A stretch of DNA of 64,000 bases from a virus (taxonomy: Duplodnaviria; Caudoviricetes): IMG/VR virus record IMGVR_UViG_3300044297_000138, positions 1-64,000 of that record; one strand, 5' to 3'. Within the stretch, counting starts at the first letter, position 1, and every line of letters starts with the position of its first letter. A model generated the notes under the pieces. That model saw only the letters and a list, made by a program, of their open reading frames with translations, had not been told where the DNA came from and ran no database searches. This document shows positions 1 to 3,669 of the stretch, one piece after another. The translations under genes were made by a program, and so were the position numbers.

Positions 1-659
1 TTAGCAGCACCAAGTGATTTCAAATCTTTTAACCATTCAAAACCATCCAAAATTTTATGAACAAGGGCCTCAATCATATCTTTTAAACCACCAAACAAAC
101 CATTTTCTTTTTCTTTTTTTGTTATAGTGGCTGTTGGTGCACCCGTTAATTTAGAAATGGCAACAACCAATTCTTTGTGGCGTCTTTCAGATTCTAACTG
201 TTTTTCTTCCTCAAAATTTTGTTCTTTTTCACGGCGCTTTATATCTTGTTGATTTGATGTTTTCAAATAACTGTATATCTTCACCAACTGTTCGTTGATA
301 CCACCAATATCACCATCAGCTCCAGGTACAGGCCCAATTCTAGAAGCGGTTGATTTGCCTGCACCTATACGCAAAGGTCTATTGCGGCCAGTAAAGTTTT
401 CAATATCTCTGATATCACGACCAGCCAATTTACCATATAATGCAGGACCCAATTTTGAACCAAAGGTAAGAAACTTAACAATGTTCAGAGGATCAAACTT
501 TTCTTTGATACCTTTTATACTTGATTGAGTTTTTAGTGAGATGGTTTTTTTAATTGCTTTACCAATTGTTGGTTCATACAACAACTGATCGGCCAACAGA
601 TCTGTTAGTTTAGTACCACGAATTCTTCTGGCTTTTTGGTATGTTAAATTTTTATCCAT
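1..659 (-). CDS. Partial helical virion protein, tape-measure/hub-associated candidate (runs off window start)
   Basis: Read manually: ATG at 659 gives MDKNLTYQKARRIRGTKLTDLLADQLL..., open to position 1. Starts 2 nt after the stop of the 662-2206 ORF and shares an IY..L...E..RH.E...A.S motif with it. Confidence 0.75.
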   Translation of the reverse strand, partial: MDKNLTYQKARRIRGTKLTDLLADQLLYEPTIGKAIKKTISLKTQSSIKGIKEKFDPLNIVKFLTFGSKLGPALYGKLAGRDIRDIENFTGRNRPLRIGAGKSTASRIGPVPGADGDIGGINEQLVKIYSYLKTSNQQDIKRREKEQNFEEEKQLESERRHKELVVAISKLTGAPTATITKKEKENGLFGGLKDMIEALVHKILDGFEWLKDLKSLGAA

Positions 660-661
660 TT

Positions 662-2206
662 TTAATTACCTTTGGTAACTCTGTCAAAAGCAGACCTATC
701 ATCCACTTTATTTGGTTTACTTTCTGTTTGTGTGCCTGGCACAGTTATATTGTTGGTTACATTTTGTGGTGATGCGGATTGTTCTTGTAAATCTTTTTTC
801 ATTTCTGTATTTTCTTTACTCAATGCATCTATAGGTTGATCGACTGCATGAGGAATTAAACCTTGTTTTTGCAGTCTCTTGTTTAAAACAGATTCAAACT
901 CGGACGATTTAATTGTTCTCAATTCTCCGTTTGTTAATTTTCCAGTTTTTGGATTAACTTGAACAGGACTTTTTAAACCGGCAGCAACAAGCGCTTCTTC
1001 AACTGTCATGTCTGTATTTCTTTGTTTGTATACAGCTGCAGCTCCGCCAGCACCAAGATAGTGAGCCATGTATTCATAACCAGGAGTTAATGGAACACCC
1101 AATCGTTTTAATGTTGCAGTATCTTGTTCGTGCAATAATTTTTGTAGTTCTTCTTGAATTGTCGGTGTAAACTTTGTATTTTTTAAATCATATCCTTTTT
1201 GTTGCACTAAACCTGGTCTAAAGTTTCCTTTTTTATCATATGTTCCAAATAAAGTGGAATTCATAAATTGATATTTTCCCATCGCACTTGTGTTTGGTGC
1301 TTGTCTGTTTCTTTCTTTACCTAAAATATCAATTTCTTCTAATGTCAAATCTGTTAAATTTTTACCATTAAATTTTTTTTCTGGACTTAAATTTGGCCCA
1401 CGAACAACATTACCTTTTTTATCTAAAGTATCACCAAAAGTAATATCGTATTTTCCGCCAGATTCTGCGCCGCCAATTGCTGATGCCATTGTTCCTGCAA
1501 GAGCAGCGCCGGTGACAGCTTTTCCGACCGATGGTAAAACTGGTGTTTGAGAAATAGGTTTTGGTGCAACTGGTGCTTCTGCAACAGGCTTTGGTGTTAC
1601 TGTTGGTTTTGGTGTGGTTACAGGTTCAGCTGATGGTTTTGGTGCTGCAGCTGTAGGTGGTTCAGCTGATGGTTTTGGTGCTGCAGCTGTAGGTGGTTCA
1701 GCTGATGGTTTTGGTGCTGCAGCTGTAGGCGGTTCAGCTGATGGTTTTGGTGCTGCAGTTGTAGGTGGTTCAGCTTTTGGTGTTGCGGCCTTTGGTTGCT
1801 CAGCTTTTGGTGTTGCAGCCGTAGGTGGCTCAGCTTTAGGAGCTCCTGTTTTTGATGCCGCTTCAGGTGGTTTTTCACCTTTAGTTGGTGTAGTCGGTTT
1901 GGCTGGTTTTTCTTCCGCAACCTTTTTTTCTATTTGTTTTTTTGGTGGTCTTTTAAATGATAAGGCCTTGAGAATTTCTCTATGTCTTTTTTCTAATTCT
2001 CTTTCTTCTGCCTGATTTTGTTTTTTATCTGTTTTGTAATCAAGAGCTCTTTGTGTCTCTCTTTGCACCAACATTTTGTATATGCCAGAAAGTATTTCTG
2101 TGCTGGAAGAATTTTTACCAATAGAATCCTTGGTTTGTTCATTACTACGAAACAAACCCATAACTCTTTTGACAATACTTTTACCTTCTTCTGATACTTC
2201 TGGCAT
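662..2206 (-). CDS. Virion protein with Pro/Ala-rich linker and lytic transglycosylase/lysozyme-like domain (tape-measure-like position)
   Basis: AIGGAESGG (catalytic ES), SAMGKYQF and YMAHYLGAGGA resemble SLT/GH23 motifs I-III; PKPSAEPPTAAA repeats; lies downstream of gp26/gp51. Confidence 0.65.
   Translation of the reverse strand: MPEVSEEGKSIVKRVMGLFRSNEQTKDSIGKNSSSTEILSGIYKMLVQRETQRALDYKTDKKQNQAEERELEKRHREILKALSFKRPPKKQIEKKVAEEKPAKPTTPTKGEKPPEAASKTGAPKAEPPTAATPKAEQPKAATPKAEPPTTAAPKPSAEPPTAAAPKPSAEPPTAAAPKPSAEPPTAAAPKPSAEPVTTPKPTVTPKPVAEAPVAPKPISQTPVLPSVGKAVTGAALAGTMASAIGGAESGGKYDITFGDTLDKKGNVVRGPNLSPEKKFNGKNLTDLTLEEIDILGKERNRQAPNTSAMGKYQFMNSTLFGTYDKKGNFRPGLVQQKGYDLKNTKFTPTIQEELQKLLHEQDTATLKRLGVPLTPGYEYMAHYLGAGGAAAVYKQRNTDMTVEEALVAAGLKSPVQVNPKTGKLTNGELRTIKSSEFESVLNKRLQKQGLIPHAVDQPIDALSKENTEMKKDLQEQSASPQNVTNNITVPGTQTESKPNKVDDRSAFDRVTKGN
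1623..1826. repeat. Coding tandem repeat: four 36-bp units plus two degenerate 30-bp units
   Basis: ggttcagctgatggttttggtgctgcagctgtaggt at 1623, 1659, 1695, 1731 with single-base variants; encodes PPTAAAPKPSAE on the minus strand. Confidence 0.95.
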
Positions 2207-2395
2207 TTAACTTTTCATCCGTTCTCTTAGTTTTCTATTTTCTTCTTCCAAATACTGAATCAATAAGGTAACATAAATGTCACGTTCCCATGGTATCATA
2301 TCTTCAAGTTCGGTCAGACTATATTTGTGGTGTTGCATCAATCCAAAATTAGTCTTATAATAATTACTTAATGTATCATAACAAATTAAAATGCG
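2207..2395 (-). CDS. gp51: Baseplate hub assembly protein gp51-like (no ATG before the conserved N-terminal block; possibly reached by -1 frameshift)
   Basis: Frame reads RILICYDTLSNYYKTNFGLMQHHKYSLTELEDMIPWERDIYVTLLIQYLEEENRKLRERMKS*; NF.LMQHHKYSL.E.E.M.PWER is the gp51 signature of cyanophage-like T4s. Absent from the ORF track. Confidence 0.85.
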   Translation of the reverse strand, partial: RILICYDTLSNYYKTNFGLMQHHKYSLTELEDMIPWERDIYVTLLIQYLEEENRKLRERMKS

Positions 2396-3114
2396 AAAAA
2401 ACTTTCAAGACCCTCAACTTCCATTTTATGATGAAAACCGCATTTAGAACAGGTCATTTCAATATTCTTTTTCATCTTTGGTAGATTCGCAAAGAATTTT
2501 TCAATCTTTTCAAATTGTTGTTGACTCAACTGTTCAATAAACTCCAACAATTCTTCTTTGGTTGTTTCTTTTGCATAATAAAATTGTTCGCCATCATAGA
2601 TATATTCAATTGAGCTGGCAATCATATTAAAGGTTACATCAGTAATATTATCAACATTAACAGAATCTTTAATAATACCAAATTTTGGATATCTCATCTT
2701 GATAACGATTTTATCCGTCAATTTGATTTCAGGATCAATCTTTTCTTCCCATTCTGGTTTGATTTGAGTTAAATCAACTTTTGCATCCATCGTATTACCA
2801 CATTCTTGTCCATTCACATCATTGTTGCAACGATATTTTGATTCAACAATTTCACCGACCGATTTTGCACGAAGATTAACAAAATAATATTCTATATCTA
2901 AAATTGGTAAGTCATCTATATCAATATTTTTTGTCATGGTACAGACGTTTAGAATCTCTCTGACATTATATTGGATGGTCTCCGCATCACCGGATTCCAT
3001 GGCCATCATCAGGTTTTTCTGTTCTTTGACCAAGAATGGTCGGTATTTAATTTTCTTTCCAGAAAGTGGCAATTCAAGTTCGTATGTTGGCACTTCAAGT
3101 TTAGGTAAAGCCAT
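2386..3114 (-). CDS. gp26: Baseplate hub assembly chaperone gp26
   Basis: MALPKL..PTYEL.LP.SGK.IKYRPFLVKEQK, LRAKSVGE, Cys motifs and C-terminal EGLESFF are typical of gp26. Confidence 0.9.
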   Translation of the reverse strand: MALPKLEVPTYELELPLSGKKIKYRPFLVKEQKNLMMAMESGDAETIQYNVREILNVCTMTKNIDIDDLPILDIEYYFVNLRAKSVGEIVESKYRCNNDVNGQECGNTMDAKVDLTQIKPEWEEKIDPEIKLTDKIVIKMRYPKFGIIKDSVNVDNITDVTFNMIASSIEYIYDGEQFYYAKETTKEELLEFIEQLSQQQFEKIEKFFANLPKMKKNIEMTCSKCGFHHKMEVEGLESFFAF

Positions 3115-3129
3115 AATATCTCCTCAGTT

Positions 3130-3669
3130 TTAAATGACAAATGTTCTATTGAACCATCTAGTATAAGCAAAAGTTACTGTTAATTTATGATATCCATCAG
3201 CAGACCAGTCTAAATCCATCTGGTTCATGGAGATTGGATAACATTCAAAGAAATCAGCAGAATAAACAATTTCGTTTTCTGTATTGTATTGATTCACGGT
3301 CAAATATGTTGCATAATCTGCTTTGTATTTGAAGTTATTTGTAAACGCAGGGTTGATATACTCCAACCATGCATCAAAAATATATTTCTGATTCATCTCA
3401 GAATCAACGATGAAAGTCAAATCCAAGTCGTTGTATGTGGTCAAATATGGATACTTTTCAATAGGTCCATATGTTTTTTGTTCTGTTGTTGCAAAGGTTC
3501 TACTTGGCAACATAGCATTTTCACAGCTGTATTTGAGTGTTCGGTTTGCGTTTGGTTGACCCGCAAAAACAGTCAAAACAGGAGGAACAATGATGGATAC
3601 ATCAAAACGATTGGGCCTTGCAAGTTCTTTTTTAAAATTGGCCTTGAAATCTGCGATACTTCCTGCCAT
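3130..3669 (-). CDS. gp54: Tail-tube-like protein / baseplate-tail tube initiator (gp54/gp19 family)
   Basis: LARPNRFDV, C....LPSR, YPISM..MDL.W, LTVTFAY; tube-fold motifs; next to gp2. Confidence 0.7.
   Translation of the reverse strand: MAGSIADFKANFKKELARPNRFDVSIIVPPVLTVFAGQPNANRTLKYSCENAMLPSRTFATTEQKTYGPIEKYPYLTTYNDLDLTFIVDSEMNQKYIFDAWLEYINPAFTNNFKYKADYATYLTVNQYNTENEIVYSADFFECYPISMNQMDLDWSADGYHKLTVTFAYTRWFNRTFVI

Follow-up and report, generated by a model that had tools for sequence, protein, structure and literature searches.

How a reading frame whose conserved 5′ part has no start codon of its own might come to be translated is the question raised by a short open frame that follows gene 26 in an uncultured marine phage. 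The window, by which we mean the whole stretch of DNA analysed here (64,000 nucleotides), makes up the opening 64 kb of an IMG/VR virus record of 174,535 bp (174.5 kb), and its source is a marine T4-like myovirus whose kin are cyanophages and Methylophilales phages. The 194 nt at the start of the record (window 1-194) recur at its end (L172:7843-8036) with 99.5% identity, and because of this terminal repeat the record is taken to be a circular or terminally redundant assembly. The initial annotation had proposed that a programmed -1 frameshift fuses gp26 to a start-less gp51, in a chaperone system resembling G/GT of phage lambda.

Gene order and reading frames at the gp26 locus

The genes concerned are all encoded on the minus strand, in the order of a gp19-like tail tube gene, gp26, the short open frame reaching to 2207, a 514-aa ORF, and a second large ORF. 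The tube gene (3130..3669), which is directly upstream of gp26, matches phrog_45 (tail tube) with an E value of 2.3e-38, and its matches to the Pfam families Phage_TTP_2 and Phage_T4_gp19 are weak. gp26 itself (2386..3114, frame 0, 242 aa) belongs to Pfam PF12322 (T4_baseplate) over its full length and above the gathering score, residues 9-241 being aligned with profile positions 2-219 at an E value of 3.3e-63 and 213.8 bits against a cut-off of 24.5, and it matches phrog_150 at an E value of 1.3e-68. The 514-aa ORF (662..2206) occupies the tape-measure position, and its ATG (2206) abuts the stop codon of the short open frame. The second large ORF, whose 5′ start is at 659, extends to position 1 of the window and runs on at the other end of the record, to give about 495 aa in all. 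The gene order read from the initial annotation, with a tube gene upstream and a tape-measure gene downstream, holds on the upstream side, where the position of the tube gene was observed; downstream, a tape-measure gene is at best putative, neither of the two large ORFs having matched a tape-measure family. The 514-aa ORF (662-2206) has no match to a Pfam or PHROG family and no BLASTP similarity to T4 gp29, and the second large ORF (from 659 onward) likewise has neither a Pfam or PHROG family match nor similarity to T4 gp29. A Pro/Ala-rich tandem-repeat linker is encoded at about 1620-1800 in the 514-aa ORF. The sole neighbors of this ORF in a protein atlas based on a language model are SLT/phage tail lysozyme clusters (0.81-0.86), which serve as a lead only.

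The 3′ end of gp26 reads, on the minus strand, ...GAG GGT CTT GAA AGT TTT TTC GCA TTT TAA. It contains a slippery heptamer, T_TTT_TTC (2401-2395), in the X_XXY_YYZ phase, an SD-like GAGGG (2415-2411) separated from the heptamer by a 9-nt spacer, and the frame-0 stop codon TAA (2388-2386), two codons after the heptamer. A TGA (2407-2405) just upstream closes the -1 frame, which thus opens one codon before the T-run, with no space for a start codon farther upstream. After a slip, the -1 frame would read RILICYDTLSNYYKTNFGLMQHHKYSL... for 62 codons until TAA at 2209-2207, and this segment (2207..2395, including the stop codon), which is the "gp51" part, is referred to below as the extension. The first canonical start codons in its frame are TTG 2341 and ATG 2338 (2336..2341), which are extension codons 19 and 20; no ATG, GTG, or TTG occurs earlier, and the block L.NYYKTNF precedes both of them. 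Conceptual translation gives a C-terminus of ...MEVEGLESFFAF (...FFAF) in frame 0, and in the -1 frame the junction peptide MEVEGLESFFR followed by ILICYDTLSNYYK. When re-read from the sequence, the in-phase heptamer, the GAGGG motif, and all coordinates of the initial annotation proved to be right, and so did its statements that the -1 frame is open onward and has no start before the conserved block. T6 runs are frequent in the AT-rich window, which contains 59 of them with both strands counted, and because of this frequency a T6 run by itself is weak evidence.

Conservation of the heptamer and selection on its codons

Three sets of related loci were compared: 80 IMG/VR loci found with gp26 of the window (62-88% identity), 80 loci found with gp26 of P-SSM2, and 43 far more distant loci found with P0136 (25-45% identity to P0136). 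Isolate phages from GenBank provided further loci, and a search of viral contigs with gp26 of Vibrio phage K575 as the query found nothing. An in-phase T_TTT_TTN and, at a constant distance from it, the extension in frame -1 are present in 206 of the 207 surveyed loci, at gp26 identities down to about 25%. In the nearer sets, every one of the 164 analysable loci has an in-phase TTTTTTC (163 loci) or TTTTTTT (one locus, phiM7), and the frame-0 stop lies 0-3 codons past the heptamer, at a distance of one codon in 148 loci. In the distant set, T_TTT_TTC, T_TTT_TTA, or T_TTT_TTT is found in phase in 42 of the 43 loci. The heptamer is also present in Pseudomonas phage Milchi, Vibrio phage K575, Paraglaciecola phage GD1, Sinorhizobium phage phiM7, and S-CRM01, and Vibrio phage VmeM-32, whose sequence was fetched apart from the surveys, carries T_TTT_TTT in phase, ahead of a -1 extension that is more divergent. 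The alignment of junctions across T4-like genomes, which had been suggested together with the frameshift proposal, accordingly revealed conservation of both the heptamer and the -1 phase in every relative but one, and chance would not explain such conservation of the heptamer.

The sole exception among the ~207 loci, L193 (1700-1720), reads GGG TTT TTT ACA, that is, G_TTT_TTT, with the T6 run one base out of the heptamer phase, and its extension is still in the -1 frame. It could represent a sequencing error, slippage of a single tRNA, or a hint of polymerase slippage. A large clade among the distant IMG/VR loci (L177-L202) uses T_TTT_TTA. In this clade, gp26 has Phe-Leu-Ser at its end, and the first residue of the extension is Ile instead of Arg; a C-terminus of ...FL plus one residue is found in about 14 of 150 representatives of the family. 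T_TTT_TTA is the same heptamer as that of the HIV-1 gag-pol site.

The pattern of codon usage at the junction was analysed with 127 unique junctions. Ahead of the heptamer, column entropy is high at the third positions of frame 0; within the heptamer, the three third positions of that frame have zero entropy; and downstream of it, entropy is high at the third positions of the -1 frame. In other words, the frame whose third positions vary changes from 0 to -1 precisely at the heptamer. The next codon is variable in frame 0 (Ala, Val, or Gly), and in frame -1 it is CGN, encoding Arg, in 121 of the 127 junctions. Phe239 is encoded by TTT in 127/127 junctions and Phe240 by the minor codon TTC in 126/127, compared with 20-22% TTC elsewhere. 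As a control, conserved columns with two-fold degenerate codons were inspected elsewhere in the gene; in each of these 15 columns both codons are in use, the minor one accounting for 5-52%. The codon before the heptamer is variable (Ser, Asn, Asp, or Ala), yet its wobble base is always T in the 127 junctions. Neither codon bias nor the conservation of Phe-Phe alone would be sufficient to explain the codons of Phe239 and Phe240 together with this wobble T.

Stimulating elements of the kind expected for a dnaX-type -1 frameshift, an SD-like element about 10 nt upstream and a downstream stem-loop or pseudoknot, were also sought around the heptamer. RNAalifold predicted 0 pairs downstream of the heptamer in 28 diverse junctions, and the downstream fold of the window itself has a z of -0.57, with no signal of a stem-loop or pseudoknot. 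The SD-like motif that the initial annotation put forward as a stimulator is indeed there, and in the form of GA(G/A)GG, which encodes conserved Glu-Gly, it is near-invariant among the 127 unique junctions. The motif is not creditable as a signal, however, because it is inseparable from the conserved Glu/Arg/Lys-Gly codons, and similar purine-rich codons are found in T4-type gp26 genes, which undergo no shift and have AGAGG, AAGGG, or GAGGG at the same place; it is retained here as a candidate stimulator whose role is unproven. The only other recurrent feature near the heptamer is the nearby frame-0 stop.

The phase of the T-run bears on whether the frame would be changed by the ribosome or during transcription. 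In the latter case, RNA polymerase would add an extra U on the T6 run, and a minority of the mRNAs would carry gp26 and the extension in one frame and encode the same long protein. Such transcriptional slippage is in line with a run of at least six T as the invariant feature, with L193, which retains T6 but not the heptamer phase, and with the fact that no RNA stimulator was found. On the other hand, the T-run starts at the wobble position of a variable codon (Ser, Asn, Asp, Ala, or Gly) in all loci but one, and this phase counts against polymerase slippage because it is required for tandem slippage by the ribosome and not for slippage by the polymerase. The run of six T is, moreover, short: bacterial RNA polymerase does not usually slip productively on runs of fewer than about 8-9. 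The "other mechanism" of Vladimirov et al. is, as that work is described in PMC10885494, the possession of two separate genes. Transcriptional slippage consequently seems rather unlikely to us.

The extension and its counterpart in T4 gp51

When translated from the TGA, the 65-residue -1 frame matches phrog_634 ("baseplate hub assembly catalyst") from residue 2, with an E value of 4.2e-28. It also matches positions 230-276 of the phrog_150 profile (282 positions), which are the C-terminal end of the profile of the gp26 family. Alignment of the extension is gap-free from the first -1 codon, down to 34% identity, and L9 and F17 are invariant, both of which precede the first possible start in the window. 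gp26 and the extension were modelled separately, as two structures, and the extension is predicted to form three helices with a pLDDT of 86. Its alignment and the codon pattern at the junction show the extension to be under clear purifying selection. Such selection speaks against the idea that the frame change arose from an assembly error or a homopolymer sequencing error, or that gp51 is a decaying pseudogene. Homopolymer runs are error-prone on some sequencing platforms, but the same T-run length and the same frame relation recur in more than 200 independent assemblies as well as in the isolates P-SSM2, S-SKS1, and S-CRM01, and we give an artifact or a pseudogene practically no chance.

In T4, gp26 (208 aa) and gp51 (249 aa) are hub assembly chaperones (Leiman et al. 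2010, PMC3004832, Table 2). Their genes are divergently transcribed, and the two proteins, both of which belong to PF12322, are paralogues (BLASTP E value 2e-6). T4 gp51 consists of a full PF12322 domain (residues 1-201, E value 3.9e-52) and a C-terminal extension that matches phrog_634. The conceptual fusion of the window, composed of gp26 residues 1-240 and the 62 residues of the extension (302 aa), aligns with T4 gp51 without a gap over the junction (E value 4e-8), where ...ESFF followed by RILICYD... pairs with ...DVFKLLVNPD... of T4 gp51. The organization of the T4 gp51-type long form, a gp26-type domain and then a colinear extension of ~50-60 aa, is thus found in the window for the conceptual -1 product only. 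Nine phages with two genes (T4, Melville, ESh27, KPV15, QL01, phiR1-RT, Kimel, RB49, and Aes012) were examined, and none has the T-run. gp26 of T4 (L084 3803-3830), Melville, ESh27, KPV15, and QL01 keeps a C-terminal ...GLKEFF..., spelled with the non-slippery GAR TTC TTT. The two-gene phages could be regarded as a natural control, in that phages with a dedicated gene for the long form do without the slippery spelling.

A different fate of the extension would be that of a free small protein without fusion, whose translation would start at TTG 2341, at ATG 2338, at a non-canonical codon (e.g., ATT), or by reinitiation past the gp26 stop. Public annotations, which list a separate "baseplate hub assembly catalyst" of 47-63 aa, agree with this idea, and so does an ATG that lies 2-6 nt past the gp26 stop in cyanophages. 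This early in-frame ATG, at extension codon 3, is confined to the cyanophage class; the clade of the window and the distant clades have no in-frame ATG ahead of the conserved block, which begins at extension residue 11 in 126 of the 127 unique junctions, and in 12 of these junctions extension codon 32 is the first ATG. The initial annotation had regarded a regular ATG before the block in relatives as an argument against the fusion, and the cyanophages do provide it in part, but the heptamer, its phase, and the residues ahead of the ATG are still conserved there. Several observations argue against a free protein: no canonical start precedes the invariant L9, N16, and F17 in the window and its clade; many relatives have Ile or Val in place of the Met at 2338; conservation of the -1 frame starts at the heptamer, upstream of the gp26 stop; and T4 gp51 has both parts in one chain. 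In addition, a free protein would leave unexplained the fixed minor codon TTC, the invariant wobble T, and the loss of the T-run in the two-gene phages. It is therefore highly improbable that a free protein replaces the fusion; a free extension peptide is unlikely in the clade of the window, and in cyanophages it may be made in addition to the fusion.

Fusion of gp26 to a start-less gp51, as originally proposed, is instead supported by the conserved heptamer and phase, by the conservation of the extension, by its colinearity with T4 gp51, and by the two-gene phages. We consider it quite probable that a ribosomal -1 slip on U_UUU_UUC gives a short and a long chaperone from one gene. With similarly good confidence, the "gp51" ORF of the window would not be a gene of its own and is best seen as the -1 part of the long form of gp26.

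Proposed short and long chaperone forms and their known counterparts

The AlphaFold2 model of gp26, which was built on 111 diverse homologues, has a pLDDT of 95.9 and a pTM of 0.90. Its residues 1-96 were compared with 48,161 PDB chains using VIA-align, and the best matches were 3fgx_B (Z 7.5), 3klu_A (YqbN, Z 7.3), and 2ob9_B (Z 6.8), each with 85-86 residues aligned, an rmsd of 3.8-4.0 Å, and a sequence identity of 6-7%; the next match has a Z of 4.7. These structures, 2OB9 (HK97 gp13), 3KLU (Bacillus subtilis YqbN), and 3FGX (Rbstp2171), are named as phage tail assembly chaperones in PMC9603447. The top matches of gp26 all have Z values below 8, which may reflect only a common arrangement and call for caution, and no significant match was obtained by a Foldseek search of the gp26 model against the PDB, nor was anything found by a profile search of PDB sequences with gp26. 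The specificity of the top three is telling, and the N-domain of gp26 is predicted to fold like these three solved tail assembly chaperones. Their rank as best matches, along with the position of the gene after the tube gene, upholds the likeness to lambda G/GT noted at the outset. The two features expected of a frameshifted chaperone pair of the lambda G/GT type, a slippery heptamer and a chaperone-like fold, were both found, the latter at Z < 8 and without significance in Foldseek. Outside the chaperone-like N-domain, conserved Cys96, Cys105, Cys222, and Cys225 of gp26 form a zinc-ribbon-like motif, and the remainder of the protein gave weak structural matches to the zinc-finger regions of DnaJ/Hsp40, with a Z of about 3.5.

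Based on these findings, gp26 would be a tail (tape-measure/hub) assembly chaperone in its short form. The majority of ribosomes would stop at the TAA (2388-2386) to yield the 242-aa protein, and a minority would slip back by one base, with two tRNA-Phe on UUU UUC within U_UUU_UUC (2401-2395). The slipped ribosomes would then read on through 62 more codons, CGC AUU UUA..., to yield a 302-aa long form composed of gp26 residues 1-240 and the extension. That form would be the counterpart of full-length T4 gp51, and the pair would correspond to gpG/gpGT of lambda and to TAC-N/TAC-NC of T4-like phages, with gp26 of the window as TAC-N. We infer the occurrence of the shift, its ribosomal nature, and its efficiency from the features described above, as well as the identity of the client, a protein encoded downstream. 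A wider evolutionary scenario can be entertained only tentatively: the poly-T site might be ancestral to, and near-universal in, PF12322; the two-gene phages might have purged it while keeping Phe-Phe, with the spelling TTC TTT; and cyanophages might add a free peptide via the ATG three codons past the slip site, with the clade of the window relying on recoding alone without an RNA stimulator.

The value of the locus lies in annotation, and it adds little as a discovery. Annotations of marine T4-like phages contain, in hundreds of genomes, a stand-alone gene call of 47-63 aa for "gp51 baseplate hub assembly catalyst", which sometimes starts inside the conserved block and would be better annotated as the -1 extension of gp26. 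No joined CDS (ribosomal slippage) is present in the public records that were inspected. The extension is an unannotated gap of ~190 bp after gp26 in S-WAM1 (L224 1214-1403) and S-PRM1 (L225 1217-1400), and the RefSeq notes for gp26 and gp51 of Acinetobacter phage Kimel (NC_049492, L221) read "tape measure protein assembly chaperone". T4-like phages would conform to what holds for long-tailed phages in general, namely the production of two tail chaperones, one short and one long, and the use of recoding in some and gene duplication in others offers a natural comparison with which to ask why their ratio is important.

Comparison with lambda reveals both likeness and difference. gp26 of the window follows a tube gene, as in the lambda-type order, and the downstream ORFs have no match to a tape-measure family. 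lambda gpG/gpGT has no sequence similarity to gp26, and its heptamer is G_GGA_AAG, in contrast to U_UUU_UUC here. gp26 also has an extra C-terminal part of 145 residues with the four-Cys motif, which lambda-type chaperones lack. Xu, Hendrix, and Duda reportedly described, in 2004, a conserved -1 frameshift of tail assembly chaperone genes. The likeness to T4 is closer, because T4 gp51 is composed of a gp26-type domain and the same C-terminal extension and T4 gp26 ends in ...RGLKEFFELL, but T4 uses two divergent genes, with Phe-Phe encoded by TTC TTT, and the window uses one gene with a -1 extension.

The closest counterpart is the TAC-N/TAC-NC system of T4-like phages. The initial annotation knew of no description of such frameshifting in these phages, and on this point it appears to be mistaken: Vladimirov, Gautam, and Davidson (Virology 2022, 566:9-15) are cited in PMC10885494 and PMC12846349 for a poly-T signal near the 3′ end of TAC-N. 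PMC12846349 cites them for the TAC-N/TAC-NC isoforms and refers to "polyT-containing sequences" as "known -1 frameshift signals" in T4-like TAC-N, and PMC10885494 states, with reference to their work, that certain T4-like phages possess a short gene plus a longer, fused one and do without a frameshift. As far as these two citing articles describe it, the published system shares with the window the gene family, the principle of paired short and long forms, the poly-T signal, and the two-gene alternative, and no difference in kind is identified; what is new is the phage, an unstudied and uncultured marine one. The system thus appears to have been published already, and the locus in the window appears to be a further example of it, not a discovery, although the details given here of codon-level selection, of the TTC TTT spelling, and of the start-less clade may extend beyond the published work as it is cited.
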